DNA from: Candidatus Buchananbacteria bacterium
Lineage (GTDB): Bacteria; Patescibacteriota; Patescibacteriia; Buchananbacterales; UBA6539
NCBI GenBank assembly: GCA_013359225.1
Contig: JABWCG010000002.1
Span: 49,470-113,469 of the forward strand
Reading direction: 5' to 3'
DNA: 64,000 nt
Made by a program: the position numbers and the translations under genes. Shown in pieces: positions 17,252 to 51,411 of this stretch. Below the pieces are notes generated by a model. The model saw nothing but the letters and a program-made list of their open reading frames with translations, did not search any database and had not been told where the DNA came from. How positions within the stretch are numbered: position 1 is the first letter of the stretch; every line of letters begins with the position of its first letter.

Positions 17252-19651
17252 ATGTTATTCAAAAAAAAGTTCATCCTGTGGTTTGATGAATTAACGATTA
17301 AAGACGTTCCAAAAGTCGGCGGTAAGAATGCGTCGCTGGGTGAGATGTACCAAAAATTAGTTCCCCAAGGGATTAACGTTCCTAATGGTTTTGCCGTTAC
17401 GGCTCAGGCTTATTTTTATTTATTAAAGAAAACCGGTATAAGATATCAGATTCAAAAAGTTTTAAGCGATCTTGATACTCATGATATGAAAAATCTGACG
17501 GAGCGCGGTCAGAAAGTTCGTGATTTAATCTTGCGGGCGGAATTTCCCAAAGATTTGGAACAGCAAATTGTGACGGCGTACCATAGTTTAGAGCAGCATT
17601 ATGGCAAAGGCGTGGACGTGGCGGTTCGGTCATCGGCCACAGCTGAAGATTTGCCGGATGCTTCGTTTGCCGGCCAGCAGGAAACTTTTTTAAATATTCG
17701 CGGCCCGCAGGGAGTAATTGATGCAACGCGTCATTGTATGGCGTCGCTATTTACCAACCGGGCGATTTCATACCGTACCGACAAAGGCTTTGATCATTTC
17801 AAGGTTGGCTTATCGGTTGGCGTGCAGCACATGGTTCGGGCCGACAAAGCCAGTTCCGGCGTGATGTTTACGATTGATACGGAAAGTGGTTTTCGTAATG
17901 CCATTTTAATCAATGGGTCCTGGGGGCTGGGTGAAAATATTGTTCAAGGCAAAGTGACGCCGGACGAATTTTATGTTTTTAAAGAAACTTTAGAACAGGG
18001 ATTTAAGCCAATTATTTTAAGAAAACTCGGCGGTAAAAAAATTAAAATGATTTACGCCGCTAAAGGCAATAAAGTGGTCAAGAATATCAGTACGACCAAA
18101 GCCGAGCAGCAAAAGTTTGTTTTAAACGATAAAGAAATCCTGAAGCTGGCCGAATGGGGGCTGATGATTGAGAAACATTACAATCGGCCAATGGATATTG
18201 AGTGGGGAAAAGACGGTAAAACCAAGAAGCTGTATATTTTACAAGCTAGGCCTGAAACTGTGCATGCGGCTAAGAACAGTCAGGTGCTTGAAGAGTATCA
18301 GTTAAAGAAGCGCGGTAAAGTGATTGTTTCCGGTTCGCCGGTCGGTAGTAAGATCGCTAGTGGCCGGGCCAATATCATTAAGGACGCCAAGCAAATTAAC
18401 CAGTTTAAGGCCGGTGAAATTTTAGTGACTGATATGACCGATCCGGACTGGGAACCGATTATGAAAATTGCCGCCGGCATTATTACTAACAAAGGCGGTC
18501 GTACATGCCATGCAGCAATCGTTTCGCGCGAGCTTGGTATTCCCTGTATTGTCGGAACGGACGACGGCACCAAGAAAATTAAGTCCGGCCAAGAAGTGAC
18601 GATTTCTTGCGGCGAAGGCGAAATTGGTTATGTTTATGACGGTAAGCTGCCGTTTGAAATTAAAAAAACCAACTTGAAAAATATTAAGCGGCCCAAAACC
18701 AAGATTATGATGAATATCGGCCAGCCCGATATTGCGTTTAGCAGTTCGTTTATCCCTAACGACGGCGTTGGTTTGGCTCGTGAAGAGTTTATCATTGCTA
18801 ATCATATCAAGGTTCATCCGCTGGCGTTGCTGCATTTTAATACCCTAAAGGATAAGCAAGCCAAGAAAAAAATTGCGGCTTTAACGGTTGGCTATCAAAA
18901 GAAAGAACAGTTTTTTATTGATAAGCTTGCCGAAGGCGTGGGCCAAATCGCTGCGGCGTTTTACCCCAAGGAAGTGATTTTTAGATTGTCGGATTTTAAA
19001 TCAAACGAATATGCCAACCTGATCGGCGGCAAAGAGTTTGAACCAATTGAATCAAACCCTATGATCGGCTGGCGCGGTGCCTCCCGGTATTATGCGCCGG
19101 AATATCAGGAAGCGTTTATCCTTGAATGTAAGGCGTTTGTGAAAGCGCGCGATGTGTTTGGTTTGAAAAATATTAAATTAATGGTGCCGTTTTGCCGCAC
19201 GGTGGAAGAAGGCAAAAAGGTGATTGAGATTATGGCTAAACACGGCCTTAAACGCGGCGAAGACGGGCTTGAGGTTTACGTGATGTGTGAGATTCCATCA
19301 AATGTCATTTTGGCCGAAGAATTCAGTAAAATTTTTGACGGTTTTTCCATCGGCTCAAACGACCTAACTCAGTTGGCTTTGGGGGTAGACCGCGATTCGG
19401 CTTTAGTAGCACACGTATATGATGAACGTAATGAAGCGGTAAAACGCCTGGTCAGTCAGGTAATTAAAATCGCCAAAAAGAATAACTGCAAGATCGGTAT
19501 TTGCGGCCAGGCACCAAGTGACTTTCCAGACTTCGCCCGATTTTTGGTCAAACAAAAAATTGACAGCATATCGTTAAATCCTGATACGGTCATTAAAACA
19601 ACGCTTGATATTCTAGCTGAAGAAAAGAAAATGAAACGTAAAAACAGGTAA
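17252..19651 (+). CDS. ppsA: phosphoenolpyruvate synthase (PEP/pyruvate-binding, phosphohistidine and PEP-utilising domains)
   Basis: 799 aa, with GGKNASLGEM ATP-grasp-like N-terminus, mobile-domain GGRTCHAAIVSRELGIPCIVG, and C-terminal PEP-utilising TIM barrel with MVPFCRT. Confidence 0.85.
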   Translation: MLFKKKFILWFDELTIKDVPKVGGKNASLGEMYQKLVPQGINVPNGFAVTAQAYFYLLKKTGIRYQIQKVLSDLDTHDMKNLTERGQKVRDLILRAEFPKDLEQQIVTAYHSLEQHYGKGVDVAVRSSATAEDLPDASFAGQQETFLNIRGPQGVIDATRHCMASLFTNRAISYRTDKGFDHFKVGLSVGVQHMVRADKASSGVMFTIDTESGFRNAILINGSWGLGENIVQGKVTPDEFYVFKETLEQGFKPIILRKLGGKKIKMIYAAKGNKVVKNISTTKAEQQKFVLNDKEILKLAEWGLMIEKHYNRPMDIEWGKDGKTKKLYILQARPETVHAAKNSQVLEEYQLKKRGKVIVSGSPVGSKIASGRANIIKDAKQINQFKAGEILVTDMTDPDWEPIMKIAAGIITNKGGRTCHAAIVSRELGIPCIVGTDDGTKKIKSGQEVTISCGEGEIGYVYDGKLPFEIKKTNLKNIKRPKTKIMMNIGQPDIAFSSSFIPNDGVGLAREEFIIANHIKVHPLALLHFNTLKDKQAKKKIAALTVGYQKKEQFFIDKLAEGVGQIAAAFYPKEVIFRLSDFKSNEYANLIGGKEFEPIESNPMIGWRGASRYYAPEYQEAFILECKAFVKARDVFGLKNIKLMVPFCRTVEEGKKVIEIMAKHGLKRGEDGLEVYVMCEIPSNVILAEEFSKIFDGFSIGSNDLTQLALGVDRDSALVAHVYDERNEAVKRLVSQVIKIAKKNNCKIGICGQAPSDFPDFARFLVKQKIDSISLNPDTVIKTTLDILAEEKKMKRKNR

Positions 19652-20173: not shown

Positions 20174-20983
20174 ATGATTGAATTTCTTCACACGTTTAAT
20201 CCGCAGCCGATCATTTTTCAGTATGGGCTAGTAACGCTGCATTGGTATGGTATTTTTGTTGTTAGCGGTATTTTAGCCGGCTTTAAAGTCGTTTCTAGGC
20301 TGGCAAAAAAATACCAACTGGCTATTGATCAAATTTATGATCTAGGTTTTTATATGATCCTTTTTGGTTTAGTTGGTGCCAGAATTTTTTCGGTTTTTTT
20401 AGACCTGTCATATTACCGTCAACACCCGCTAGAAATTTTTGCCATTTGGCAGGGTGGTCTAGCTATTCACGGGGCAATCATCGCCGGTTTGATGGTGTTG
20501 GGTTTTTATGCTTATCGCCAAGCACTTGATTTTTGGCGCCTGGCCGATATGATCGCGCCGGCCTTAGCACTGGGCCAAGCGATTGGCCGCTGGGGTAATT
20601 ATTTCAATCAAGAAATTTTTGGCACTCCCACTAATCTGCCGTGGGGGATTCCGATTGAGTTTAAAAATCGGCCGATTGAATATCTGAGTTATGACTATTT
20701 TCATCCTACCTTTTTGTATGAATCAATTTTAAATATTTTAAATTTCGCGCTCTTGTTTTTTTTGCATTACCGATTAAAAAATAAAAAGCCAGGGTTAATT
20801 GTTCTGCTTTATTTAATTAATTATTCTTTGATTAGGCTTGCTCTAGAGACCGTGCGAACTGATGCGGTGCCGCTTTTACTCGGTCTGCGGGCAACCACGA
20901 TTTCGGCGTTAGCGCTTGCCGCCGTGGCCATTGGCATGATTGGTTGGCGGTATCGTTCAAGTTTGACACTCAAAAGACGGTAA
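20174..20983 (+). CDS. lgt: prolipoprotein diacylglyceryl transferase
   Basis: HWYGIFVVSGILAG, GGLAIHGAIIAGL, GRWGNYFNQEIFG signature motifs. Confidence 0.85.
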   Translation: MIEFLHTFNPQPIIFQYGLVTLHWYGIFVVSGILAGFKVVSRLAKKYQLAIDQIYDLGFYMILFGLVGARIFSVFLDLSYYRQHPLEIFAIWQGGLAIHGAIIAGLMVLGFYAYRQALDFWRLADMIAPALALGQAIGRWGNYFNQEIFGTPTNLPWGIPIEFKNRPIEYLSYDYFHPTFLYESILNILNFALLFFLHYRLKNKKPGLIVLLYLINYSLIRLALETVRTDAVPLLLGLRATTISALALAAVAIGMIGWRYRSSLTLKRR

Positions 20984-21003
20984 CCTATAATTAAAGCAAG
21001 TTT

Positions 21004-21399
21004 ATGAAACTAAAATTTCTCACTTTTATCAGTATATTTTCCTTGGCGCTGGCCATTGTTTTTTTAGGAGCAGCCAGCGCTGTTTTAGCCGCTGAAGGGA
21101 TTGAAAATCCATTAGGTATTGACGACCCGCGCGAAATCATTGGTAATGTCATTCGGGCGATTTTAGGTATTGTTGGTTCCTTGGCATTAGCAATTTTCAT
21201 TTTTGGCGGTTTTACTTGGATAACTTCGGCTGGTAATGATGAAAAAGTAAAAAAGGGTAAAGAGATGATTACCTGGGCGGCGTTTGGGTTGGTGGTAATC
21301 TTTTTAAGTTATGCGCTAGTGACCTTTGTGATCGGGGCGATTGTTGGTGGTTCAGGTGGTAGTCCAACTATTCCTGGTAGCGGCGACTCTTCTATTTAA
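21004..21399 (+). CDS. TrbC/VirB2-like pilin candidate (signal peptide plus two TM helices separated by a short charged loop)
   Basis: 131 aa with long signal peptide; mature part has TM1 ILGIVGSLALAIFIFGGF, loop TWITSAGNDEKVKKGKEMIT, TM2 WAAFGLVVIFLSYALVTFVIG, and a Gly/Ser-rich tail. Topology matches the VirB2/TrbC family; sequence identity not verifiable here. Confidence 0.4.
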   Translation: MKLKFLTFISIFSLALAIVFLGAASAVLAAEGIENPLGIDDPREIIGNVIRAILGIVGSLALAIFIFGGFTWITSAGNDEKVKKGKEMITWAAFGLVVIFLSYALVTFVIGAIVGGSGGSPTIPGSGDSSI

Positions 21400-21447
21400 A
21401 ATTAAAATTTGATTTATATTAAAAAACAGTTTAGGCTGTTTTTTATT

Positions 21448-21476
21448 GACAAATTCTTCAAAATATGCTATTATAA
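21448..21476 (+). promoter_or_regulatory. sigma70-type promoter (TTGACA-17-TATTAT) driving the high-GC cassette
   Basis: Consensus hexamers in the AT-rich spacer upstream of a high-GC gene block; the roughly 115-nt leader contains small hairpins (gcgctaatgcgc). Confidence 0.4.
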
Positions 21477-21592
21477 AAGGTCATGATTTTCTGGGTTTTC
21501 CTAGCAGATTATGACCCGCGTGGTCTTTACAATATAGCTAGTTTTGACTGAAATGAAACGCGCTAATGCGCTAAAACACAGGAGATCGTGAC

Positions 21593-22261
21593 ATGGCAGA
21601 AGGAAAGTTTCGAATGTTCGGTGAGTTTGGAACGGCGTTTTTGGCGGACCTGGTTTATGGCAAGACCATAGGCAAAGGTTCCGACACGGGTTCTGTCGCA
21701 GTTGGTTCCGGGCTGGCCAAGGAGTTGCGTCCTCGGCTCTTCGGTTTGGGACGCGACGACGAGGCAGCGTTTGCTCAGGCCCTGGCACAGCTCGACGCAG
21801 TCGGGCAAGCTAAGGTTTTGACCAGAATGAAGTCGTTGGGCAACCCCGACGCCGCCGACACCCCTGAGGCGAGAAGTTTTCGTCTCAGTTTCGTTACTCT
21901 CCCGGACCTGGCGTCGCGGGTAGAAGTAATGAAGATGATTGCCGATATGCCGGATTCCAAATGGCATGACTTCGTTGACGTCACCGGGTTTGCCAATTCT
22001 GGTGACCTCTTGAAGTCATTGCGCGAGTTCTATCGCCGGTTTGAAATTGAACTGGCGGTTATCATGCTGATTATGGGCGCGGCAGCGGTATACGTCGCTG
22101 GTGCCTTGGTTCGCGGTGATGAGAATGCCGCTCGTAGGCTTGAAGCCGGCGCCGCTGGACTGGAAGAGGTATCGGCAAAGGTGCGTCGTTGGGAGGAATC
22201 TCAAGACACTAAACTCAGGCAACAGAAGCGTGGCTTTTGGTCCTGGCTCTGGCCCTGGTAA
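21593..22261 (+). CDS. hypothetical protein, soluble N-domain plus single C-terminal TM (high-GC cassette gene 1)
   Basis: 222 aa; AGGAGA RBS; strong G/C third-position bias; TM LAVIMLIMGAAAVYVAGALV then charged tail ending FWSWLWPW. Confidence 0.5.
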   Translation: MAEGKFRMFGEFGTAFLADLVYGKTIGKGSDTGSVAVGSGLAKELRPRLFGLGRDDEAAFAQALAQLDAVGQAKVLTRMKSLGNPDAADTPEARSFRLSFVTLPDLASRVEVMKMIADMPDSKWHDFVDVTGFANSGDLLKSLREFYRRFEIELAVIMLIMGAAAVYVAGALVRGDENAARRLEAGAAGLEEVSAKVRRWEESQDTKLRQQKRGFWSWLWPW

Positions 22262-22297
22262 CTGTCAACAACAAACCATCTATGAGGATATACTGAC

Positions 22298-23812
22298 ATG
22301 GCTGAAAACGAGAAGAACGAGAAGAACAAAACCGTTACTCCTAGCAGTGACGGTGGCGCTGACGCAGTAATGCGTACGAAAATCGCTGGAGCGGTTCGAT
22401 CAGTAGCCGATGCTATTGAAGAACCGACGAAACTTGGAAGCGTGGCTTACACTACATCCATGGTTTCAGTCGCGATCTTGGCAGCTGTCGGCGTGTTTCT
22501 GGCGCTGTTCGGATCAAAGAGTGGTGAGCAACTTTTGGGTCGTGCCTATACTTTGCTTGAGATGATGTTGAGCGGAGCAGTCGGCACCACCAAGTGGGTT
22601 CAGTCTCAGCGACCGAAGATTCAGAAAATCCTTTGGCTGTATGGCTTGTGGATTCTTGGTACCGTGATAATGACCATCGTGGCCATCTGGATACCTTGGA
22701 CTACGCCGGCCGATATCATCCTGATCGTTTTGGCGGTCATGCCTTATGTGATGGCCTTGGTGGTTCAGGTGCTGGTAGGAAGCTTGCTCAACAATCGGCG
22801 ACTGTCTTTGGCACTCAGCCGACAGTTCGCCATCGTATCCATTGTTGAATTCTTTATTGCCGCGGGCGTGTTGTTTCTACCCGAGGAGATGAATGGGTTC
22901 TATGTGGTTACGAGTTTGGCCCTGGCAGGAATGATTGTTTGTGCTTATTCCCGGCTTGTTGGGACGAAGAGCAACGTCATTTTCCATGCCATGGTTATCA
23001 GCACTATCATGATGGCTTCGGCGGCCTTGAGCATCCACACTCTGGACGTGATTTCGCAATCAGACACCTCTCGTGGTATGGTGGCGAAAGAATTCAAGGC
23101 AACCGTTGATGCCTGGGCGTATCAGCTGACAAACTTCTTGCGTAGTGGGTACTTGGCTGAATATGTCGTTACTCAAGAGGGCGACCTCGATGTTAATGGC
23201 AATTTGGTTAAACTCACTAAGGGCACTAAGGTCTATCGTGATCTGAGCGCGAAGCCTGATTACCCGGATGGTCTGCCGCCCCGTTACAAGGTGACGGTAA
23301 ACGGCGGTACCAATGACGGCATGAAGGGATTTTTTTCTTCAAGCCTTCTGAAGCCGGCGAAGAAACCGTCCGAACCGAAAGTTGTACAACCTGCGCCTGC
23401 CCCAGCGCTAACGCCGGCGACGACGGTCACACTATCATCGCCTCCGGCCTTGACTCCTCCGGTGTCTGCCAATCCGTTGGAATCGGAAATCACCGCCGAG
23501 ACTGGGGAGTGGGAGGACATTGCTCCTTCCAGTTTAATACCCCAGGCTGGTGACATGCTGGTTTGGGGACCGCTGGACAATCCTAAGGAGTTTCGTCGGT
23601 TAGAGTTCATCGTTGGACTTAACGCCGACGATGTCTCAACACCAGTGGTGTTTGATTACCCAGGCGGTGGTTTCGTCGGTAAGACTGGTGTCACCAAGAA
23701 TGACAGTAATTCACCGTTGCGCTTTCGGGTCACCGATGGCGAGCCAATCACCTTCAAAGTGAAAGTTGAACCTGGCGAATATGCCAGATACCTCAAGCGG
23801 AAAGGAGACTGA
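22298..23812 (+). CDS. hypothetical polytopic membrane protein with Pro/Ala/Thr-rich linker and C-terminal soluble domain (high-GC cassette gene 2)
   Basis: 504 aa, about 6 TM helices in the N-terminal half, linker KPAKKPSEPKVVQPAPAPALTPATTVTLSSPPALTPP, C-terminal beta-rich-looking domain. Confidence 0.5.
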   Translation: MAENEKNEKNKTVTPSSDGGADAVMRTKIAGAVRSVADAIEEPTKLGSVAYTTSMVSVAILAAVGVFLALFGSKSGEQLLGRAYTLLEMMLSGAVGTTKWVQSQRPKIQKILWLYGLWILGTVIMTIVAIWIPWTTPADIILIVLAVMPYVMALVVQVLVGSLLNNRRLSLALSRQFAIVSIVEFFIAAGVLFLPEEMNGFYVVTSLALAGMIVCAYSRLVGTKSNVIFHAMVISTIMMASAALSIHTLDVISQSDTSRGMVAKEFKATVDAWAYQLTNFLRSGYLAEYVVTQEGDLDVNGNLVKLTKGTKVYRDLSAKPDYPDGLPPRYKVTVNGGTNDGMKGFFSSSLLKPAKKPSEPKVVQPAPAPALTPATTVTLSSPPALTPPVSANPLESEITAETGEWEDIAPSSLIPQAGDMLVWGPLDNPKEFRRLEFIVGLNADDVSTPVVFDYPGGGFVGKTGVTKNDSNSPLRFRVTDGEPITFKVKVEPGEYARYLKRKGD

Positions 23813-23815
23813 CTA

Positions 23816-24283
23816 GTGGCTAAGAAAGGCAGAAAGGTTGCAATCCGTGACGGATCGGATTTGACGGTGTTCATCACTTGGACACTCGGACACATTAAAC
23901 CCAAGGCGTTTCAGACATTACTTGGGAAGTTCGAGTTCGGCAAGGACGTTCAGATCGTCGATACCGATGATGTCATGATTTGGCGTCGGAAAGTGACCAT
24001 CGAGCCGATGCCGAAAGTCGTCAATGTGCAAGTGCAGTACACGGCTACCGTGGATGTCACGGACGAGATCGAAAATCAGTGCGCCGAAGATGCCGATAAT
24101 AAGGTGTTCAAGGTGATTGATACTTTGGTCAAGGTCAATGACGTCCCGGGCAACGATGAGCCGGAAAAGAAAGAAGAGAAGAAACCTGACCAGCAGCAAG
24201 GTCGCGGGCAACAACGCCAACAGGGCGGTGGTGGTCAAGGCGGCGGGCAGGGCGGTCGGAGTGGCCAAGGCGGTCAAACCTAG
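23816..24283 (+). CDS. hypothetical protein with Gly/Gln-rich low-complexity C-terminus (high-GC cassette gene 3)
   Basis: 155 aa, GTG start 3 nt after the upstream stop, AGGAGA RBS; tail QQGRGQQRQQGGGGQGGGQGGRSGQGGQT. Confidence 0.5.
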   Translation: MAKKGRKVAIRDGSDLTVFITWTLGHIKPKAFQTLLGKFEFGKDVQIVDTDDVMIWRRKVTIEPMPKVVNVQVQYTATVDVTDEIENQCAEDADNKVFKVIDTLVKVNDVPGNDEPEKKEEKKPDQQQGRGQQRQQGGGGQGGGQGGRSGQGGQT

Positions 24284-24498
24284 CTAAGCTAGTATCATCG
24301 ACTGAGAGTAATTTCGGGCGATGATCACGCATTTTCAAAGGACCAGTAAGTTTGTGCAAACAAGCAAGCTGGTCCTCTTTATTTTATCTTGACAGATCTA
24401 GTATTTTTTTGTAGTGTAGTTATATCAACATAGCGCCAAGAGTGTTATGTTTTTTGTTTGAACATTAACAACAAGTTTAACCTTTGGAGGGCTAAGTT

Positions 24499-24963
24499 AT
24501 GGGTATCAGAGATGTTTTAAAAGGGGCTGCTCTTGCCCTTGGTCTGGCTGGTGCTGGCTATGCTGTTGCCCAGACAGCTACATCGACGATCAGACCAACT
24601 GTTTCTTTGTGGGTTATTTTACAGAAATGTAAAGGCCAGGATGATGTGAATTGGCTGAAGCGGTTTGCCGATTTTGTAAAAATTATCGGCGATCAAAAAG
24701 CAACCAGGTTTGTCAGAAATCTTGAATTATTGGCCGGTGAAGTTGGAGTTGAAGTCGCGGCCGATTTGGTTACTTCGATTTTGGGTTTAGAGTCGCTAGA
24801 AGAAGCTTCAAACATGGCTTCAAATCTAAGATTCTTTGAACCAGCACCTTCAAACGGAACGCTTCTTGATGAATTAAGGAAGATGGATGAATCAGCTGCC
24901 GATAATATTGGTCGGCTAGGTGGTCGTTTCCGCCAGGCAATAAAAAATATCAAGGAAGCTTAG
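24499..24963 (+). CDS. hypothetical secreted/membrane-anchored small protein
   Basis: 154 aa, N-terminal hydrophobic segment GAALALGLAGAGYAVA; followed by a hairpin terminator (caggcca...tggcctg + T-run about 24989-25026). Confidence 0.4.
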   Translation: MGIRDVLKGAALALGLAGAGYAVAQTATSTIRPTVSLWVILQKCKGQDDVNWLKRFADFVKIIGDQKATRFVRNLELLAGEVGVEVAADLVTSILGLESLEEASNMASNLRFFEPAPSNGTLLDELRKMDESAADNIGRLGGRFRQAIKNIKEA

Positions 24964-25021
24964 TGGTTTCCTCGAAAAACCCTTTATCTGATAGCAGGCC
25001 AGATGTCAATTTGGCCTGTTT

Positions 25022-27073
25022 TTATTTAGTGGCCTTTTGCAATTGCCCTAAAACTTCAAGCGCCGGTTCAAACTTTGGATCAAGTTCCAAAGCTTTTTTA
25101 ATTTCCTCAACTGCCGCCGCTAAGTCTCCTTGGTTAGCAAACATTACTGCTAAATTCGTTCGCAGTTCGGGGTCATCGGGTACTGCTTCAATACCTTGAC
25201 GCAAGATGCTAATAGCTTGCTGGGGTTCATTTTGCCGGCTGTAAATTGATGCCAGGTGGCTGTAATTATCAATCAGCGTTGGGGAAAGAGCGATTGATTG
25301 GTAATAATGTTTAATGGCTTCATCAATACTTTGCAGATTGACTAAGCTAACCGCCAAACCATGATGACCGCGACCGAAATTCGGATTGATTTTTAAAGCC
25401 GCTTCAAAATTATCTTTAGCCGCTTCAAAATCACTTTGTAGTAGGTTAATCACCCCGGCGTTAGAATAGGCCAGATAGTATCGCGGCTCAACTGTAACTG
25501 CTTTTTCATATTGTTCTAAAGCCTGTTCCAGCTGGCCGAGTTTTTGATAGGTAACGCCAAAGTTGTTGTAGGTTTCAGCAATATTGGGTTGCAGTTTGAT
25601 TGCCTGTTGGTAATGTTCAATGGCTAACTTGTATTCGCCAAGCTCGTCATAAACCGTTGCCAAATTTTCATAGACAATCGCCAGGTTAGGTTCTAACGCC
25701 TTGGCTTTTTCTAGATGAGGTAAAGCTTCGTTGTAGTTTTTTTCTTTGGCATAAAGGTAGCCGATATTGTTGTGGACCCGTCCGTAATCCGGTCGTGACG
25801 CCAAGGTTTTTTGCCAAAGCGTTTTGTCGCTTTTCCAATCAAAGTTTCGGGCAAACGTTAGGCCGGCATAGCTAAATGTAATAGTAATAATCAGTAAAAC
25901 GCCACCAACCACCAAATATTTTTTGGTTGATTTTAATAGGTTATACACTAACCACCCCATTAGCAAGCAGGTACCAACTGACGCCAGGTAGGTGTATTTT
26001 TCAGCCATAATAATGCCAGTGGGAAAAACGTTGGTTACGGCGGCTAAGCTTAAGAAAAACCAACCAATCACTAAGCTAATTAGCGGCTTTCTTTTGGCGA
26101 GGTAAATCGCCAGACCAAACAGAGCGAGTAATAAAATAATTGATATTATTATTTTAGGATCAGCTAAATTTTGATTGATTTTAATTTCATGATAAACCGT
26201 CTGAGGGTAGGGAATAAACAATAAATAGATATATTTGATAAATGCTTTGCTGGTGTTAAAAACTCTGGTAATAAGACCGGATTGCTGTTCGGCATCAAAA
26301 GCGCGGCTGGCAATCGGCAGGCTGGCTCTGATGATGATCCAGACCACCACCCCTACAAAATAAGGGATATAGTTTTTGATTTTTTTGGCCATCACCCGAT
26401 ATTCAAAATTATTTTTATAAAGGTCTAGGAGGATTAACATTAATGGTAAGACGAGCGTGAATTCATAACTGAAAAATGCCAACCAACCAAAGATGATAGA
26501 CGTTAGGTAGAAATTTTGGATTCGGGCGCTGTTACTCTTCAGGTAAAAATAAACGGCGTATAAAAAGAAAACGGCGCCGATAATGTCGACACTGGTGGTA
26601 AAAAAACTGATCGCTTCAGTGTGAATTGGGTGAAGTCCAAAAAATAAGCTGCTTAAAAAAGCGACATGACGATTTTTGGTTAATTGTTCAATCAGGAGAT
26701 AGACGGCGACAACGGCTGCAAGATGAATTAGTAGTGATATCAAGTGATAGCCAAACGCATTTTCAACATGGCCGGTTTCGATCAGTTGATTTTGTCCGCC
26801 AAAAAGTTGGAAGATAAAAAGCTGAAAAATGCTGCGTAAGGGGCGATAAACGCCTTGGTGTTGAGCTGGTAGTTCGCCGCCCAAAAGCGATCCGACGCTA
26901 TCAAGACTATAAAGCGCTGGCCAGTTGCCATAGAAATCCGGGTCGTCCCAGACGAAGCCGTTTGCTAAAATATTTGAATAACTCAAAAAAGTTAAAACTA
27001 ATACAATACTAAGTGCTAGCCATTTTTTAGTTTCCAAGAAGTGTAAGATTTTTTCCATAGCTTTATTATACAA
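25022..27073 (-). CDS. membrane glycosyltransferase-like (PMT/DUF2723-type polytopic N-domain) fused to C-terminal TPR repeats
   Basis: 683 aa, 10 or more TM helices in the first 400 aa, then at least 8 TPR-like 34-aa repeats (repeating AxxYxxAIxxxP patterns). Confidence 0.7.
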   Translation of the reverse strand: MYNKAMEKILHFLETKKWLALSIVLVLTFLSYSNILANGFVWDDPDFYGNWPALYSLDSVGSLLGGELPAQHQGVYRPLRSIFQLFIFQLFGGQNQLIETGHVENAFGYHLISLLIHLAAVVAVYLLIEQLTKNRHVAFLSSLFFGLHPIHTEAISFFTTSVDIIGAVFFLYAVYFYLKSNSARIQNFYLTSIIFGWLAFFSYEFTLVLPLMLILLDLYKNNFEYRVMAKKIKNYIPYFVGVVVWIIIRASLPIASRAFDAEQQSGLITRVFNTSKAFIKYIYLLFIPYPQTVYHEIKINQNLADPKIIISIILLLALFGLAIYLAKRKPLISLVIGWFFLSLAAVTNVFPTGIIMAEKYTYLASVGTCLLMGWLVYNLLKSTKKYLVVGGVLLIITITFSYAGLTFARNFDWKSDKTLWQKTLASRPDYGRVHNNIGYLYAKEKNYNEALPHLEKAKALEPNLAIVYENLATVYDELGEYKLAIEHYQQAIKLQPNIAETYNNFGVTYQKLGQLEQALEQYEKAVTVEPRYYLAYSNAGVINLLQSDFEAAKDNFEAALKINPNFGRGHHGLAVSLVNLQSIDEAIKHYYQSIALSPTLIDNYSHLASIYSRQNEPQQAISILRQGIEAVPDDPELRTNLAVMFANQGDLAAAVEEIKKALELDPKFEPALEVLGQLQKATK

Positions 27074-27177: not shown

Positions 27178-27387
27178 ATGGGTGAACAGGTATCAAATTT
27201 TGTTTATCAATATCGTACTAAGCAGGGAGTAACCCAAGAACAGTTAGCGTTGGCCTTAGGAGTTACTCGTCAGACGATTATTGCAATTGAGCGGGGAAAT
27301 TACACGCCGTCAGTATTGTTGGCGCTTAAGATTGCAAATTTTTTTGGCCAGCCGGTTGAAAAGATATTTATTTATGGAAATAATTAA
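27178..27387 (+). CDS. XRE-family helix-turn-helix transcriptional regulator
   Basis: QEQLALALGVTRQTIIAIERG is a classic HTH_3/Cro-C1 motif. Confidence 0.7.
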   Translation: MGEQVSNFVYQYRTKQGVTQEQLALALGVTRQTIIAIERGNYTPSVLLALKIANFFGQPVEKIFIYGNN

Positions 27388-27405
27388 AATATAAAAATAA
27401 AATTA

Positions 27406-27954
27406 ATGATCAGCACTATGAACATCACAACCCGAAAGGTAGCAGCCTTTTTTTGTTTATTGGTTTTGACAGTCATAATTTCTGCCTGTGTGCCGGCTGA
27501 ACAAAACAGCGCTAATACCGCTACAGTTCCACAGGATAAAGCGTTTCAAGAACAAGATAATGTAATGCTTGAGGCTAATAATGTGGCCGGACAAGAGGCA
27601 ACAGACAGCGCGATGGTGGAAAAAGAGGAAAAAATACTGCAGGATGCCCCGGCTAGTGATAGCAGTGTGGTAGCGCCGCAGGTTAAGACGTTTGATATTA
27701 CGGCTAGAAATTTTGCCTTTTCTCAAACGGAGATAAAAGTGAAGAAAGGGGATAAGGTGCAAATTAATTTTAAGAGTACTGACGGCTTTCATGACTGGGT
27801 TATTGATGAATTTAATGCCAAAACCGACCAGGTTAATACCGGCGGCAGTTCTAGTGTTGAGTTTTCTGCTGATCAGCAAGGAATTTTTGAATTTTATTGT
27901 AGCGTCGGCCGTCACCGTGACTTGGGCATGGTAGGAAAATTGATTGTTGAATAG
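27406..27954 (+). CDS. cupredoxin-fold (plastocyanin/azurin-like) lipoprotein
   Basis: Lipobox LTVIISAC; C-terminal domain with H, CSVGRH and GMVGKLIV motifs resembling type-1 copper ligands (H...C...H...M). Confidence 0.55.
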   Translation: MISTMNITTRKVAAFFCLLVLTVIISACVPAEQNSANTATVPQDKAFQEQDNVMLEANNVAGQEATDSAMVEKEEKILQDAPASDSSVVAPQVKTFDITARNFAFSQTEIKVKKGDKVQINFKSTDGFHDWVIDEFNAKTDQVNTGGSSSVEFSADQQGIFEFYCSVGRHRDLGMVGKLIVE

Positions 27955-27993
27955 TTTGGTTTTTTAATATAAAAAACCACAGTCAGGCCGCTG

Positions 27994-28030
27994 AAAAAGC
28001 CTCGTTATAAATGAATAACGAGGCTTTTTA
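27994..28030 (+). terminator. intrinsic terminator
   Basis: gcctcgttat-aaatga-ataacgaggc hairpin plus T-run. Confidence 0.6.
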
Positions 28031-28352
28031 TTAAAGATTATTGTCTATGGGGGTAAGTTATCAACACCGTCTTCGATAGGTGCCTTTCCCCCTTGTTTTT
28101 TGGGACTTTCTTAATGCTTGTTCGGTTATAGCAAATTGTATATAATGACTAAACCACCAAAACTCTTGAAGGGAGGGAAAGCTTATAAAACAAAAATAAA
28201 ATTTTCGCCTGAAGCTTAAAATAAGATGGAAGCAAATTCTATTAGCCTGTCTTATTTTTTATTGACTTCAAATCCCATATTTTTCCATATTTCTTCAAAA
28301 CATTATTACATTTCGAGCTTAAAAACAAATTATTTAAGGAGGTCAAAAAAAT

Positions 28353-31244
28353 ATGAACGGCAAAATCAAAAAAAGAAGCGGCGAAATCGTCGAATTCAGT
28401 CCGAATAAAATTACTAATGCGATTCGTAAAGCTTTTTCGGCTACCGGTACCAAGTTTACCGAGGAGCATCTTGGCGAGATTGTTGATGAAGCGGTGTTGG
28501 AACTTGGTAAAACGTTTAGTGAAACAACGCCAAGCGTTGAAGATGTGCAAAACATCGTTGAAAAAATTCTAATGGCCGGAGGACATTTTGATGTTGCCAA
28601 ATCTTACATTATTTATCGTTATGAACATACTAAAGTCCGAGAAGAAAAGAAAAAAGACGTTTTAGAAAAATTAAACCGTAACGATTTATTGGTTATTAAA
28701 CGTTCCGGCCGGACTGAAAAGTTTTCATCAAAGAAATTAAAAAAATCGCTTACCTGGGCAGTCGCTGGATTAGAAGGCGACATCGACGTTGATCTTATTG
28801 TCCGACAATGTGAAGCCAATTTGTATGACAATATTGCGACTAAAGAGATTTCCCGCGCTCTTGTGTTGGCAGCGAGAAGTTTGATTGAACGCGATCCGGC
28901 TTATTCAAAGGTTGCAGTTCGGCTATTGTTTGATTTGCTGTACAAAAATGTTATCGGCAATGAAAAGCTTGACTATAAAAATTTTGATCAACTGTATCGG
29001 CAGGCTTTCATTAACAATATCAAAAAGGGTGTTGAGATCGGCCGGCTTGACCCTCAGTTATTGAATTTCGACCTGGAAGAAATTTCCAAAAAATTGAAAC
29101 CGGAACGCGATGATTTGTTTATGTATCTTGGTGGTCAAACACTCTATGACCGTTACTTCATTTCTAATCCGGAAACTAAACAGATTTTAGAAACGCCGCA
29201 GGCATTTTGGATGCGCGTTTCTATGGGTTTAAGTTTGCGCGAAGATCATAAAACCGAGATGGCGGCAAAGTTTTATGATCTAATTTCTTCATTGCGTTTT
29301 GTACCATCAACACCAACCTTGTTTCATGCCGGTACGTTCCATCCACAGTTAAGCTCTTGCTATTTAACAACGATTGAAGATTCGCTTGACCATATTTTTA
29401 AGTGTGTCGCTGATAATGCCCAGATGTCTAAATGGTCGGGTGGGGTTGCTAATGACTGGACCAATCTGCGCGGTACCGGCGCTTTGATTAAAGGTACGGG
29501 TGTTGAGAGTCAGGGCGTAATTCCATTTTTGAAGATTGCTAACGACACCACAGTGGCGATTAACCGCAGCGGCCGCCGTCGCGGCGCGACCTGTGCTTAC
29601 CTGGAAACCTGGCACTATGATATTGAAGACTTTTTGGAGTTAAAGAAAAATACCGGTGACGAACGACGACGAACCCACGATATGAACACTGCTAACTGGA
29701 TTCCGGATTTGTTCATGAAGCGAGTTGAGGCGGACGGTGAGTGGACCTTGTTGTCTCCAGATGAAGCGTCTGACCTGCATCATTTATATGGTAAAGATTT
29801 TGAGCGCCGTTATCTGCAGTATGAAAAACTGGCTAAAGAGGGTAAGTTGCGTATTCATAAAATAATTCGGGCCAAAGATTTGTGGAAGAAAATGATTATG
29901 ATGCTGTTTGAAACCGGACATCCCTGGATGACCTGGAAAGATCCATCCAATTTACGATCGCCGCAAGACCATGTTGGCGTGGTGCATAGTTCAAACCTCT
30001 GTACGGAAATCACTCTTAATACTTCAGCCGAAGAGACTGCGGTGTGTAATCTTGGCTCCATCAACTTGGCTAAGCATATTAAGGATAAGAAATTGGATGT
30101 TGATGTGCTTCGTGACACGGTTACAACGGCGATGCGGATGTTGGATAACGTGATTGATGTTAATTTTTATCCGACGGTTGAGGGAAAAAATTCTAACCTC
30201 AAACACCGGCCGGTTGGTTTGGGTATTATGGGTTTTCAAGATGCCCTTTACTTGCAGGATATTGCATTTGATTCTGATGAATGTGTCAACTTCGCCGATT
30301 ATTCCCAGGAAGTAATTTCATATCATGCGATTTTAGCTTCATCAAAATTAGCTGAAGAACGCGGCACTTACCGCAGTTATCGCGGATCAAAATGGGATCG
30401 CGGCATTTTGCCGGTTGATACGTTGGATGTGCTTGAAAAAGATCGCGGCGAAAAAATTGAAGTTTCTCGCTCGGCGAAACTGGACTGGTCAGTGGTTCGT
30501 CAATCAATCCAAAAGTATGGCATGAGAAATTCCAATTGTATGGCAGTTGCCCCAACTGCGACGATTGCTAACATTGCTGGCTGTTTTCCGTCGATTGAAC
30601 CAATCTATAAGAACGTTTATGTTAAATCCAACATGAGTGGTGAGTTTATTATCGTTAATAGTTATTTGGTCGCTGATTTGAAGAAGCGGGGATTATGGAC
30701 GGAAGATATGCTTGCAGAAATCAAAGGTAATGATGGTAATATTCTAAACATTACTAGAATCCCTGAAGTTTTGCGCGATAAGTATAAGGAAGTTTTTGAT
30801 ATTGATCCGGAGTGGTTAATTCGCGCGGCAGCATATCGCGGCAAGTGGATTGACCAAAGCCAGTCATTAAATTTGTTTATCAAAGGAAATTCAGGCAAAA
30901 AGATTGCTGACGCCTACATGTATGCTTGGAAGATGGGCTTAAAGACTACGTATTATTTGCGCAGCCTGGCGGCGACAACGGTTGAGCAAAGTTCGCTTGA
31001 GCTGAGTAAACAGCAGAGCATGTCTTCGGTCAAGTCCAATTCTGCTCAGAAAGTTGAAGAGCCGGAATTAGTACCACCAACCGTTATCTCTGAAGCTAAA
31101 ACAGAGCCGGTGGTTGAGCCAGTGGCCGTTAGAGAACCGGAGTCGATAATTAAACCATTGACCGCGGTGGCGCCAATTGGTCCTTCAGCCGCCCAGTTGA
31201 TGATGTGTAAGATTGACGACCCCGACTGTGAGTCGTGTCAATAA
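28353..31244 (+). CDS. nrdA: ribonucleoside-diphosphate reductase class I alpha subunit with two N-terminal ATP-cone domains
   Basis: 963 aa; two ATP cones (VIKRSGEIVEFSPNKI; VIKRSGRTEKFSSKKL), catalytic-core motifs (NLCTEI, SNC), C-terminal CxxC (CESCQ); adjacent nrdB. Confidence 0.9.
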   Translation: MNGKIKKRSGEIVEFSPNKITNAIRKAFSATGTKFTEEHLGEIVDEAVLELGKTFSETTPSVEDVQNIVEKILMAGGHFDVAKSYIIYRYEHTKVREEKKKDVLEKLNRNDLLVIKRSGRTEKFSSKKLKKSLTWAVAGLEGDIDVDLIVRQCEANLYDNIATKEISRALVLAARSLIERDPAYSKVAVRLLFDLLYKNVIGNEKLDYKNFDQLYRQAFINNIKKGVEIGRLDPQLLNFDLEEISKKLKPERDDLFMYLGGQTLYDRYFISNPETKQILETPQAFWMRVSMGLSLREDHKTEMAAKFYDLISSLRFVPSTPTLFHAGTFHPQLSSCYLTTIEDSLDHIFKCVADNAQMSKWSGGVANDWTNLRGTGALIKGTGVESQGVIPFLKIANDTTVAINRSGRRRGATCAYLETWHYDIEDFLELKKNTGDERRRTHDMNTANWIPDLFMKRVEADGEWTLLSPDEASDLHHLYGKDFERRYLQYEKLAKEGKLRIHKIIRAKDLWKKMIMMLFETGHPWMTWKDPSNLRSPQDHVGVVHSSNLCTEITLNTSAEETAVCNLGSINLAKHIKDKKLDVDVLRDTVTTAMRMLDNVIDVNFYPTVEGKNSNLKHRPVGLGIMGFQDALYLQDIAFDSDECVNFADYSQEVISYHAILASSKLAEERGTYRSYRGSKWDRGILPVDTLDVLEKDRGEKIEVSRSAKLDWSVVRQSIQKYGMRNSNCMAVAPTATIANIAGCFPSIEPIYKNVYVKSNMSGEFIIVNSYLVADLKKRGLWTEDMLAEIKGNDGNILNITRIPEVLRDKYKEVFDIDPEWLIRAAAYRGKWIDQSQSLNLFIKGNSGKKIADAYMYAWKMGLKTTYYLRSLAATTVEQSSLELSKQQSMSSVKSNSAQKVEEPELVPPTVISEAKTEPVVEPVAVREPESIIKPLTAVAPIGPSAAQLMMCKIDDPDCESCQ

Positions 31245-31277
31245 AAGTTAATAAATTAAGATTACAACTATATCACT

Positions 31278-32288
31278 ATGGCTACCAAAAAAGGAATTAT
31301 CAATAATTCTACCACTGATCCTAATAAAATTTTGCCGTTAACCTACCCTTGGGCGCGGCAGCACTACAAAAATGGTGTTGCGAATAACTGGGTGCCGGAA
31401 GAAGTTCCGATGCAGCAGGATATTGAGCTATGGAAAAAACAAGGTGCGGGTGCATTGACCGAAGATGAACGACGAATGATTTTATGGAACTTGGGATTTT
31501 TTTCCACAGCCGAAAGTTTAACCGCCAATAATATCGTTTTAGCGGTATATTCTCATGTTACTAATCCCGAATGTCGTCAGTATCTGTTGCGTCAGGCATA
31601 CGAGGAGGCAATTCACACCGACACCTTTATTTATTGTTGTGATTCTTTGGGGCTTGATCCAGACGAAGTCTATAAGATGTATGAGACCATCCCAAGTATT
31701 AAGGATAAAGATGATTTTGTGGTAAACATGACTAAGTCAGTTTTGGATCCTAACTTTAATACCAAGGGGGTAGAGAATACACAGCGGTTTGTTCATGATT
31801 TGATTGGCTTTTATGTTATCATGGAAGGGATTTTCTTTTATGCCGGATTTGCGATGATGTTGTCATTGTTGCGTAATAATAAAATGGTTGGTGTTGGTGA
31901 GCAATTTCAGTTTATTTTGCGTGATGAATCAGTTCACTTGGCGTTTGGTACGGATTTGATTAATACGATTGTTGCTGAGAATCCGGAAATTTGGACGCCA
32001 GAATTCAAAAAACTGACTACCGATAACATTAAAAAAGCCGTTGAACTTGAACACTTATATGCTAAAGATGCGTTGCCTCGAGGCATCCTTGGTCTGCGAG
32101 AAGATATCATTAGAGAGTATTTGGAATATATTGCAGACCGCCGGCTTGAGCGAATTGGTTTGGAAAAAGTCTATGGTTCGGCTAACCCTTTCCCGTGGAT
32201 GAGTGAAATTATTGACGTGCGTAAAGAAAAAAACTTTTTTGAAACACGTGTCACGGAATATCAAACCAGCGGTAATTTAGAATGGTAA
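31278..32288 (+). CDS. nrdB: ribonucleoside-diphosphate reductase class I beta subunit
   Basis: 336 aa, ferritin-like di-iron ligand motifs (EEAIHTD; RDESVH), C-terminal acidic/aromatic tail. Confidence 0.9.
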   Translation: MATKKGIINNSTTDPNKILPLTYPWARQHYKNGVANNWVPEEVPMQQDIELWKKQGAGALTEDERRMILWNLGFFSTAESLTANNIVLAVYSHVTNPECRQYLLRQAYEEAIHTDTFIYCCDSLGLDPDEVYKMYETIPSIKDKDDFVVNMTKSVLDPNFNTKGVENTQRFVHDLIGFYVIMEGIFFYAGFAMMLSLLRNNKMVGVGEQFQFILRDESVHLAFGTDLINTIVAENPEIWTPEFKKLTTDNIKKAVELEHLYAKDALPRGILGLREDIIREYLEYIADRRLERIGLEKVYGSANPFPWMSEIIDVRKEKNFFETRVTEYQTSGNLEW

Positions 32289-35320: not shown

Positions 35321-35502
35321 ATGTATATTATATCAAAATTACATCATGCTGTGCTAACAATGTTTTGAGGAATTGACAAAATGCTTAAAATATGCTACTA
35401 TTTAATTATTAATTAAATAAAGTGTTTTGTGGGACTTAACGTCAGAAAACCCTAACAAGTTTACTAACCAAAGTTTGCAAAATACGCCAAGGTATTATCC
35501 CA

Positions 35503-35676
35503 ATGGACAACAGAGGCCAATTTGGTCCTCGTCAGATGGTTCAGGGAAACTGGCAGTGTTCAGAGTGCGGTGCTCAAATCACCGAGCTGCCATTTGAACC
35601 AGATGGTGACCGGCCAATTTTCTGTCGCGACTGTCATCGAAAGAAACGAGACAGTAAACCACCTAGACGATTTTAA
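35503..35676 (+). CDS. small zinc-ribbon protein (CxxC-x18-CxxC, zf-trcl-like), not in the ORF track because it is under 60 aa
   Basis: 57-aa ORF MDNRGQFGPRQMVQGNWQCSECGAQITELPFEPDGDRPIFCRDCHRKKRDSKPPRRF ending 10 nt before a strong bidirectional terminator. Confidence 0.4.
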   Translation: MDNRGQFGPRQMVQGNWQCSECGAQITELPFEPDGDRPIFCRDCHRKKRDSKPPRRF

Positions 35677-35685
35677 CAGGAAAAC

Positions 35686-47823: not shown

Positions 47824-48010
47824 GCGTAAAATGTAATTGACAATTTCTAACCTAAACTGCTCTTCTGAGCAGCATGGTTTAAAAACTCACGAAGATACTG
47901 AACCCCACGTTCAGCGATTCTTCGTGAGTCATATCGGGAAACTGGTATGGGGCTTAAAAACCCTGCTGGCGTGGGGCTTTGTGTATCTAAAAATTAATAA
48001 CCTAAAACTT

Positions 48011-48919
48011 ATGACCAACATAGCGCATGGAGGAAAGAAGTGGCTAACTTTGGTGGCCCTGGCTATCATAGCCACACCACTTTTAGCTGCCTGCACTCCT
48101 CAAACACCATCAGCCAATAATGGGCAGAAGCAAACTCAAGAGGCTCAGCTTGACACTACGCAAGAATCAGAAGCTGATACTAACCAGCAGCCTGCTGATA
48201 TTACTGAATCGGATCAACAAGCAGATGAAAGCTTTTTAGTCATCCGAGTAATTGACGGCGACACGGTTGAGTTGGAGGACGGTTCACGCGTCAGATATAT
48301 CGGCATCGATACTCCTGAGACCGTGGACCCTTCAAAACCAGTCCAGTGTTTTGGCAAAGAAGCCTCTCAAAAGAATACTGAGTTAGTTTTGAACAAGCAA
48401 GTCAGGTTAGAAAAAGATATCAGTGACAAAGACCGCTACGGCCGGTTGCTACGGTATGTTTATGTTGGTGACACTTTTGTAAACCTGGAATTAGTTAAGC
48501 AAGGCTTTGCCAGTTCATACTCATACCCACCAGATGTTAAATACCAAGACCAGATCGTAGCAGCGCAAACTGAAGCCAGAGAGCAGAAACGAGGTCTATG
48601 GTCAGCCTGCAATACCGGATCAACTAACAACGCAGCACCCCAACTAAACAGTGGTTCGACAAACACCAACACGAATACAGTCACGCCACAACCAACCCCA
48701 ACTACGCCGACCCCGGCTCCGCAAGAACCAGCTACGACACCAACTCAGCAATGTAATATTAAAGGCAACATTAGCGCTGCCGGTGAAAAAATTTATCACG
48801 TGCCAGGTTGTGGTAGCTACAACCAAACTAAAATTGACGAAAGCCAAGGAGAGAAATGGTTTTGTAGCGAAGCCGAGGCAGTAGCTGCTGGCTGGAGGAA
48901 GGCTAAAAACTGTCCTTGA
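48011..48919 (+). CDS. secreted thermonuclease (staphylococcal-nuclease fold) lipoprotein with Thr/Pro linker and extra C-terminal domain
   Basis: Lipobox LLAAC (start at ATG 48011), SNase motifs VIRVIDGDTVEL, RYIGIDTPE and DRYGRLLRYVYV, linker TPQPTPTTPTPAPQEPATTPT, C-terminal HVPGCGSYNQTKIDESQGEKWFCSEAEAVAAGWRKA. Confidence 0.75.
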   Translation: MTNIAHGGKKWLTLVALAIIATPLLAACTPQTPSANNGQKQTQEAQLDTTQESEADTNQQPADITESDQQADESFLVIRVIDGDTVELEDGSRVRYIGIDTPETVDPSKPVQCFGKEASQKNTELVLNKQVRLEKDISDKDRYGRLLRYVYVGDTFVNLELVKQGFASSYSYPPDVKYQDQIVAAQTEAREQKRGLWSACNTGSTNNAAPQLNSGSTNTNTNTVTPQPTPTTPTPAPQEPATTPTQQCNIKGNISAAGEKIYHVPGCGSYNQTKIDESQGEKWFCSEAEAVAAGWRKAKNCP

Positions 48920-51392: not shown

Positions 51393-51411
51393 TTATTAAA
51401 TTAGACTCAAA

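Follow-up and report, generated by a model that had tools for sequence, protein, structure and literature searches.

A hypervariable, GC-rich cassette of putative envelope genes at a fixed position beside a VirB2-like pilin gene in Candidatus Buchananbacteria

We analyzed a 64-kb stretch of DNA (hereafter the window) from a metagenome-assembled genome (MAG) of Candidatus Buchananbacteria, which belongs to the Patescibacteria (candidate phyla radiation, CPR). In this window three co-directional open reading frames (ORFs), here called A, B and C, follow a gene for a VirB2-like type IV secretion system (T4SS) pilin; the coordinates of these genes and of the features around them are given in Table 1. 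A and B are separated by 36 nt and B and C by 3 nt, and a GGAG-type ribosome-binding site is located 8-9 nt 5' of each of the three. A first-pass annotation, made from the sequence alone, had described the group as a compositionally foreign cassette of membrane-associated proteins behind a consensus promoter. Its gene calls, spacings and protein lengths all hold, as do the protein features that it picked out (the FWSWLWPW end of A, the Gly/Gln tail of C, and the Pro-rich linker and roughly six hydrophobic helices of B), and its promoter, leader of about 115 nt and terminator hairpin were recovered, with a leader of ~113 nt. The public proteins matching the trio are the hypothetical proteins HUU49_03475-85 of a Ca. 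Buchananbacteria MAG. In the NCBI record A is shortened to 171 aa (P0002) and B to 307 aa (P0001); the longer forms are supported because homologues conserve the N-terminal regions dropped by the NCBI calls, and start-codon calling of both genes was probably misled by their atypical composition.

The G+C content (GC) is 0.561 in A, 0.519 in B and 0.534 in C, compared with 0.426 for the window. At third codon positions (GC3) the values are 0.601, 0.572 and 0.622, against a mean of 0.428 (sd 0.057) for 45 other long ORFs in the window (z = 2.5-3.4). The rise over ~21.59-24.28 kb that the first-pass annotation had described is therefore real (GC 0.52-0.56 and GC3 0.57-0.62, against a mean GC3 of 0.43), and the uniform profile that it had named as a counter-indication was not found. 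Synonymous codons ending in G or C make up 0.568 of those used in the trio and 0.408 elsewhere in the window (chi-square 83, p = 6e-20). First and second codon positions (GC1, GC2) are elevated too, with V, G, A, D and P commoner and I, N, L, Y and F rarer among the encoded residues. The enrichment is confined to coding DNA, GC being 0.32 in the leader (21400-21592), 0.39 in the A-B spacer and 0.36 in the segment after C (24284-24498). Codon adaptation for high expression is an unlikely cause of the raised GC3, as judged against GroEL alone (GC3 0.43). The pilin/A/B junction was recovered in an independent Logan assembly (L001) that spans all three genes, which means that the left boundary is neither chimeric nor an artefact of a single assembly.

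Table 1. Positions of the A-B-C cassette, its signals, the predicted parts of protein B and the flanking genes (window coordinates).
Feature	Position	Strand	Description
PEP synthase gene	17252-19651		Upstream of lgt
lgt	20174-20983		Directly upstream of the pilin gene
VirB2-like T4SS pilin gene	21004-21399	+	GC 0.42, GC3 0.36 (native composition); conserved left flank
A/U-rich terminator-like hairpin	21421-21444	+	AAAAAACAG-TTTAGG-CTGTTTTTT, read from the sequence; ends the pilin unit
Sigma-70-type promoter	21446-21474	+	TTGACA-17-TATTAT with extended-10 TG; 11/12 consensus positions (promoter scan)
5' stem-loop	21479-21516	+	At the predicted mRNA 5' end; 11 + 5 bp; -20.7 kcal/mol, z = -4.5
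TTGAMAAT box	21526-21533	+	TTTACAAT; directly 3' of the 5' hairpin
Second small hairpin	21560-21571	+	GCGC-TAAT-GCGC; followed by Shine-Dalgarno AGGAG (21580-21584)
Gene A	21593-22261	+	222 aa
Gene B	22298-23812	+	504 aa
B, membrane region	22433-23035	+	aa 46-246; ~six hydrophobic helices (hydropathy scan and AlphaFold2)
B, predicted SH3-like beta-barrel	23153-23356	+	aa 286-353; reached via a long helix in the model
B, Pro/Ala/Thr-rich linker	23366-23470	+	aa 357-391; predicted disordered (pLDDT < 50)
B, C-terminal beta-sandwich	23480-23797	+	aa 395-500; motif W-x-D-[TI]...GD-x-V-x-WGP
Gene C	23816-24283	+	155 aa; GTG start
Intrinsic terminator	24339-24388	+	Compound stem 24339-24376, then U-rich tract; 24284-24400 folds with z = -5.5
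Orphan ORF	24499-24963		154 aa; native GC; N-terminal hydrophobic segment
TPR-glycosyltransferase gene	25022-27073	-	Downstream of the orphan ORF
HTH, cupredoxin and ribonucleotide reductase genes	27178-32288		Downstream of the TPR gene

Besides the window, at least seven Patescibacteria loci (L002/L003, L007, L008, L009, L010, L011 and L012) have the order A-B-C, which answers a check proposed with the first-pass annotation, the search for a conserved trio elsewhere. Across these loci A-like genes encode 187-237 aa (328 aa in L011), B-like genes 482-610 aa and complete C-like genes 140-173 aa, and BLASTP and hidden Markov model (HMM) searches identify each of A, B and C as homologous from locus to locus. 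Homologues of A (24-48% identical) lie upstream of B in L003 and L008-L012, and those of C (20-66% identical) downstream of B in L002 and L007-L012. In several loci B and C overlap (stop/start) or nearly abut, which suggests that their translation is coupled. Given the shared gene order and the cross-locus homology of all three, these are real genes in a real operon; the possibility that they are shadow frames of another gene, raised at the outset, is ruled out by conservation of the trio with homologous proteins in at least eight loci. A-B-C is thus a genuine operon.

The encoded families are very rare. When 1.84 billion representative proteins were searched exhaustively with HMMER, only 13 relatives of B came to light, 7 of them at E <= 1e-10, and Pfam recognized no domain in any of the 13 members. 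The earlier statement that the products are membrane-associated and lack a sequence-level domain match stands; A, B and C matched no family in Pfam, PHROGs, PADLOC or NCBIfam. Word-indexed protein searches found the genome's own proteins and one C homologue and nothing else, a scan of genome contigs found the L002 genome alone, and a metagenome scan with the A family gave no match. PDB profile searches with the A and C families produced chance-level matches only. On these comparisons A, B and C are three protein families without known relatives.

The place of the trio is conserved, and in loci whose flanks are available it comes straight after a VirB2-like pilin gene. L010 is a 20-kb metagenome contig that runs from GroEL through pyruvate kinase, PEP synthase, two small ORFs, lgt and a T4SS_pilin gene into A, B and C, with the same upstream order (PEP synthase, lgt, pilin) as the window, and in L012 a T4SS_pilin gene is again followed by A, B and C. 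On the other side, the trio in L002 is followed by genes for HTH_3, cupredoxin and the large and small ribonucleotide reductase subunits, which match those at 27178-32288 of the window. The window pilin matches Pfam PF18895 (T4SS_pilin) with 44 bits against a cut-off of 26.6 bits, as well as NCBIfam NF045849, and shares 57-70% identity with the pilins of L010, L012, L013, L017 and L019. The gene lgt lies 5' of the pilin in the window, L010, L013, L014, L017 and L019; PEP synthase, lgt and pilin are all present upstream in the window, L010, L013, L017 and L019, and the TPR-glycosyltransferase gene is present downstream in the window, L013 and L019.

What lies between these flanks is far less constant. 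From the window to L010, PEP synthase is 77%, lgt 56% and the pilin 57% identical, while identity falls to 29% for A, 23% for B and 20% for C. Three further loci, recovered by a metagenome scan with a pilin alignment (L013, L017 and L019), have PEP synthases 78-79% and pilins 58-70% identical to those of the window, and are therefore about as distant from it as L010; the TPR-glycosyltransferases of L013 and L019 are 48% identical to that of the window. In all three the slot after the pilin holds other cassettes and not A-B-C. The comparison of the lgt-TPR interval between neighbors, which had been recommended as a check on the cassette, thus gave a divided answer, with the trio present after lgt and pilin in L010 and replaced in L013, L017 and L019. 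The L013 cassette (that of L006 is alike) encodes a G-rich CPxCP protein, a 324-aa multi-helix membrane protein, a 436-aa membrane protein whose C-terminus matches the C-terminal domain of B (HMM E = 5e-20), and a 222-aa protein. The L017 and L019 cassettes open with an SPFH/Band_7 protein (29-34 bits against a 23.6-bit cut-off), followed by a membrane protein (with the B-type C-terminal domain in L019) and a proline-rich single-helix protein. Further variants follow the pilin in L014, L015 and L020. At least three cassette types were seen in the slot, all coding for membrane proteins and most including the C-terminal domain of B, which is the sole module common to A-B-C and the alternative cassettes. 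An hhalign comparison led us to reject homology between A and the SPFH proteins (probability 0.1%), and profile comparison did the same for A or C and the L013 cassette proteins. In Ca. Buchananbacteria-like Patescibacteria there is a fixed, hypervariable slot directly 3' of a conserved VirB2-like pilin gene.

Downstream of the trio in the window is the orphan ORF, for which no homologue was found in any fetched locus and no match in the profile libraries (Pfam, PHROGs, PADLOC, NCBIfam); because it has no counterpart in the fetched loci, it is best regarded as an extra slot occupant peculiar to this genome. A TTGACA box of its own precedes it, together with a hairpin (24427-24451).

The compositional anomaly recurs along with the slot. 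Every trio locus with low-GC flanks shows a GC excess over them: in L010 the trio has a GC of 0.57-0.62 (GC3 0.60-0.71) and the flanks mostly 0.33-0.43, in L012 the trio has 0.50-0.54 and the pilin flank 0.37, and in L002 the values are 0.54-0.57 and 0.36-0.46. The alternative cassettes are likewise GC-enriched. L011 and L007 have a GC of ~0.52-0.55 throughout the contig, trio included, so there are GC-richer Patescibacteria whose own composition the trio matches. The trio proteins of L010, L012 and L002 are 20-66% identical to those of the window, a divergence too great for a recent insertion still undrifted from its donor's composition, and a GC excess that recurs across such diverged loci is no mark of recent transfer into this genome.

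The region between pilin and cassette is also shared. In 13 loci, whatever the cassette type, we found the same layout: a pilin terminator, a TTGACA-17-extended -10 promoter, a stem-loop and a TTGAMAAT box. Terminators resembling the one upstream of the cassette promoter in the window occupy the same position in L008, L009 and L013. The stem-loop starts 4-8 nt past the -10 element and has 12-21 bp; its arms vary in sequence among loci yet remain complementary, and comparison with dinucleotide shuffles gave z-scores of -1.4 to -8.7 for the 13 stem-loops (12 of 13 at <= -2.7). This support comes from per-sequence folds with shuffling controls; RNAalifold predicted no pairs from the MAFFT leader alignment, which is not structure-aware. 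The TTGAMAAT box is present in the window, L003, L008-L015, L019 and L020, with a near-variant in L017, and the composite pattern of promoter plus box has one match in the window where 0.01 are expected by chance. A second hairpin, of differing sequence, stands at the same position before the Shine-Dalgarno sequence in L003, L008 and L009. The minimum-energy folds of the window and L003 leaders pair the 5' arm with the Shine-Dalgarno region; since this pairing is absent from the folds of L008, L009 and L010, we do not claim Shine-Dalgarno sequestration as a conserved mechanism. Rfam 15 contained nothing relevant at E <= 10 for 20900-25100 and gave no gathering-threshold match in the region. 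A degenerate form of the promoter-plus-box pattern matched more than 120 viral contigs, none of which codes for A, B or C, and these are accordingly chance matches.

The promoter type itself (TTGACA-N9-AAAATATGCTAnTAT) recurs in the window at 35373-35401 and is thus native to this genome. At that second site the extended-10 promoter (TTGACAAAATGCTTAAAATATGCTACTAT) heads a zinc-ribbon ORF (57 aa, CxxC...CxxC, 35373-35677) with its own terminator. The pilin gene has a perfect TTGACA-17-TATAAT promoter (12/12) at 20963-20991, inside the 3' end of lgt and 12 nt before the pilin ATG (21004), a distance that implies a very short or leaderless pilin mRNA.

Leaders of this kind were also seen in other contexts. 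In two more distant pilin loci (L021, 3533-6243; L032, 3963-6258) the same promoter-hairpin-box leader heads a gene pair upstream of the pilin, composed of a ~200-230-aa gene (with LPFGVGFNDE, recalling LFGLGRDDEA of A) and a polytopic 378-488-aa gene, neither with a GC excess; profile comparison did not bear out homology of this pair to A and B (probability 1-2%). In L078 (1308-1785) and L079 (3686-4163) the promoter-plus-box pattern lies directly 5' of a VirB2-like pilin gene heading at least five small pilin-like genes, a loose match that could be due to chance.

Stem-loops at the 5' terminus shield bacterial mRNAs against 5'-end-dependent decay, and the hairpin of the cassette leader resembles known stabilizers of this type (the ompA 5' untranslated region hairpin and the Bacillus 5' stabilizers) in being a stable hairpin within a few nt of the transcription start, which here is predicted only, and in that its position and not its sequence is conserved, here over 13 loci. 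It differs from them in the TTGAMAAT box that follows it, which has no counterpart there, and in the alternative pairing of its 5' arm in the window and L003.

In A, a hydrophobic helix is conserved at the N-terminus, and an LFGLGRDDEAAF motif and a helical body are also present; the membrane helix at its C-terminus occurs in the window and L003 only, and neither Pfam nor the PDB offered a match for A. C combines a basic N-terminus with a beta-rich core, and its low-complexity Gly/Gln/Pro tail, which is conserved in kind among homologues, comes after a KKEEKK segment. For B, an AlphaFold2 model was built from 13 sequences (mean predicted local distance difference test score, pLDDT, 70; mean of 82 for the C-terminal half modeled by itself). 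In fold, the modeled middle domain of B is SH3b-like, and its C-terminal beta-sandwich is possibly PA-IL-lectin-like. This sandwich is found in tandem copies in P0013 and P0015 and behind different membrane anchors in P0007 and P0014.

Both predicted domains of B depart from the systems that they recall. SH3b modules bind the cell wall in LytB, NlpC/P60 hydrolases, phage endolysins, SlpA (whose domain binds lipoteichoic acid) and the C-terminal part of TagH; the domain of B has no Pfam SH3 match, is carried on a six-helix membrane region and not on a hydrolase, and its binding is a prediction only. The likeness of the sandwich to the PA-IL/LecA lectins (PllA, the N-terminal domain of EclA) is weak in score and comes without sequence similarity, and the sandwich differs from these lectins in being tethered to a membrane protein by a proline-rich linker and, in the relatives named above, in being duplicated in tandem.

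Taken together, the fixed site, the variable content and the domain predictions are consistent with A-B-C being an envelope cassette, hypervariable and strongly expressed, that probably binds glycans or the cell wall and occupies a conserved slot beside the pilin gene; we give this reading a probability of about 0.45. Instead of a single insertion of foreign DNA, it is probably a module of the cell surface that changes quickly. According to this proposal, the consensus promoter and the 5' hairpin, acting as an mRNA stabilizer, would ensure high expression. B would insert in the membrane and display outside the SH3b-like domain and, on a proline-rich stalk, the possibly lectin-like sandwich, with which it might bind a variable glycan or wall ligand, for example the surface of the cells that serve this presumably episymbiotic bacterium as host or partner. 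A, which may be peripheral or tail-anchored and is predicted to be helical, and C, coupled to B and ending in a putatively disordered Gly/Gln tail, would be partners of B on the cytoplasmic side. Diversifying selection and recombinational replacement of cassettes among Patescibacteria would keep the slot variable, and exchange of cassettes between these bacteria by horizontal transfer is plausible. The GC excess would then stem from exchange with GC-richer lineages and/or GC-biased gene conversion, and not from a recent one-off transfer.

Several points weigh against this proposal. Neither profile nor sequence searches tie A, B or C to any function by homology. SH3 folds also occur inside cells. 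The topology of B is ambiguous, in that a crude positive-inside count gives 10 vs 10 and an outside C-terminus is favored in some homologues only; six helices combined with a cytoplasmic N-terminus would place the beta domains in the cytoplasm. The high expression is predicted from promoter and leader signals. The link between pilin and cassette may be mere synteny, with a terminator and a separate promoter standing between them, and no virB4, virD4 or T4SS ATPase gene was found among the 27 window ORFs scanned. Comparisons of the slot were made between species- or genus-level relatives (PEP synthase 77-79% identical) and not between strains. Finally, known replacement islands are usually lower in GC than the genome (PMC11898729), and this cassette is higher.

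Such replacement flexible genomic islands, described by Lopez-Perez and Rodriguez-Valera for surface structures, the O-chain and the cell wall (PMC11898729), are nevertheless the closest described concept. As in those islands, the site is fixed, the flanks are conserved and the content is different or extremely diverged in relatives; composition is atypical, mobility genes are lacking and the products are associated with the envelope. Besides the direction of the GC deviation, the differences lie in size and content, as the cassette comprises ~2.7 kb and three genes with no glycosyltransferases and the islands are larger and code for enzymes of sugar pathways (PMC11898729), in the promoter and structured leader conserved across cassette types, and in variation at the level of species or genus.

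We also considered a more specific idea, which is tentative and at present rather doubtful: that the pilin-side promoter, stem-loop and TTGAMAAT leader form an "expression site" into which interchangeable GC-rich cassettes, coding for novel membrane proteins and sharing the lectin-like domain, are taken by recombination. This would constitute a host-range or surface-variation system of an episymbiont, in which the GC bias would be kept up by biased gene conversion or by a separate, circulating gene pool and the leader would be a new cis-regulatory RNA or DNA element.

It is unlikely that A-B-C is an anti-phage defense, abortive-infection or superinfection-exclusion module in a variable hotspot, with membrane proteins that sense or block phage, even though the content of the slot is variable, compositionally odd and different between relatives, the cassettes are made of membrane proteins and in some cases include an SPFH/Band_7 protein, and the rapid divergence fits an arms race. 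PADLOC had no match for A or B and just a chance-level match (0.017) for C, and none of the three families contains a nuclease, nucleoside triphosphatase, protease or other effector domain. A promoter of constitutive appearance and tight linkage to one housekeeping site are atypical of mobile defense cargo, and a conventional, low-GC candidate defense island sits elsewhere in the window. The low-GC block in question (49019-55636; GC 0.36-0.40) encodes a Druantia DruA-family protein, a NurA-domain protein, a HerA/DUF87-like ATPase and a large serine recombinase, abuts a tRNA-Asp gene (55560-55636, minus strand) and looks like a genuinely integrated mobile or defense island.

Equally improbable is a role as an accessory of a VirB2-like pilus or T4SS-like machine, in which B would be a diverged VirB6-type channel or platform, or a pilus adhesin, and A and C assembly factors. 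In the window, L010 and L012 the trio comes directly after the pilin, as other cassettes do in L013-L015, L017, L019 and L020; B is polytopic, as is VirB6; for the T4SS of Patescibacteria, VirB6 is noted to be extremely diverged or apparently absent and no adhesin has been detected (PMC12102498); and L021 and L032 carry a similar pair of soluble and polytopic proteins upstream of the pilin behind the same type of leader. These likenesses meet with several objections. B and its relatives gave no TrbL/VirB6, PrgH or T4SS profile match in Pfam or NCBIfam, the L021/L032 pair reached only the low profile probability given above, and T4SS ATPase genes are missing among the scanned ORFs. B resembles VirB6, TrbL and PrgH in being polytopic and encoded beside a VirB2-like pilin and differs from them in lacking a profile match and a neighboring virB4. 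The cassette forms a transcription unit apart from that of the pilin gene, and relatives retain the pilin (57-70% identical) while swapping the cassette for other genes, which would be odd for core machinery.

A recent acquisition of the trio from a GC-rich donor, by insertion between the pilin and TPR genes with a composition that has not yet drifted, is quite improbable. In its support, the trio stands out clearly from the window in GC, GC3 and codon usage, the families are extremely rare (as the small number of B relatives attests), and L011 and L007, where the trio sits at a local GC of ~0.52-0.55, could be donor-like lineages. However, the trio and its GC excess occur at the same site in L010, L012 and L002 in versions diverged enough to indicate an old presence, and the AT-rich promoter and leader belong to a type that this genome employs elsewhere too. 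Neither direct nor inverted repeats border 21.4-24.4 kb, and no part of it is repeated within the window, so att sites were rejected; no recombinase or integrase lies near the cassette, the neighbors being the pilin, the orphan ORF and the TPR gene; and the only tRNA gene of the window, at 55560, is 31 kb away. Viral-contig scans for B and A and a tblastn search of B against phage and plasmid collections gave no match, and a near-identical copy of the trio was found in none of the databases searched. Among the signs of a genomic island, deviating composition was found; mobility genes, repeats, tRNA insertion and absence from the site in relatives were not. The first-pass view of the cassette as a horizontally acquired module is accordingly retained in part: the compositional island is real, and a one-off insertion is contradicted by the trio after the pilin in L010 and L012 and by the downstream flank that it shares with L002. 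A diversity-generating retroelement was rejected as well, there being no template repeat in the window and no reverse transcriptase among the ORFs scanned.

Very improbable, finally, is a module for competition, be it a toxin or bacteriocin accompanied by immunity and export functions or something else of this kind. Although the operon is small, variable, strongly promoted and rapidly diverging and contains membrane proteins, the searches turned up no features of a toxin, peptidase, ABC/MFS transporter or leader peptide, A, B and C are all large and lack signal or leader cleavage motifs, and the shared module is a binding-type beta-sandwich. The suggestions of defense, toxin or secretion made with the first-pass annotation found no support in any test (PADLOC, Pfam, NCBIfam, phage/plasmid tblastn).

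Some features elsewhere in the window were recorded in passing. A LOOT RNA (Rfam, 82.5 bits, above the gathering score) at 47849-47963 overlaps the start of an ORF with a staphylococcal-nuclease domain (47837-48919), and a tmRNA (Rfam, 97.6 bits, likewise above the gathering score) lies at 56859-57251. Diverged direct repeats at 61804-63262 encode Cys-rich motifs of the GDGC type (61804-61986, 74% identical) and motifs of the DDDxDG type (62261-62314 and 63209-63262); GC around them is raised to 0.46-0.50, and they suggest a repeat-rich secreted protein.

For scans that rely on composition, the locus is a caution: a GC anomaly that diverged genomes share at one and the same site does not mark a recent transfer, and may be caused by repeated import, biased gene conversion or selection. 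For the biology of the Patescibacteria, the interest of the cassette lies in its possible role at the cell surface. VirB2-like pilins are widespread in these bacteria, often in variable arrays, and a survey of their T4SS detected no adhesins (PMC12102498), which makes a variable binding protein beside the pilin worth testing. How bacteria of the candidate phyla recognize and attach to partner cells is largely obscure, and A-B-C, if the proposed surface role is true, would be a candidate for the missing determinant of specificity.

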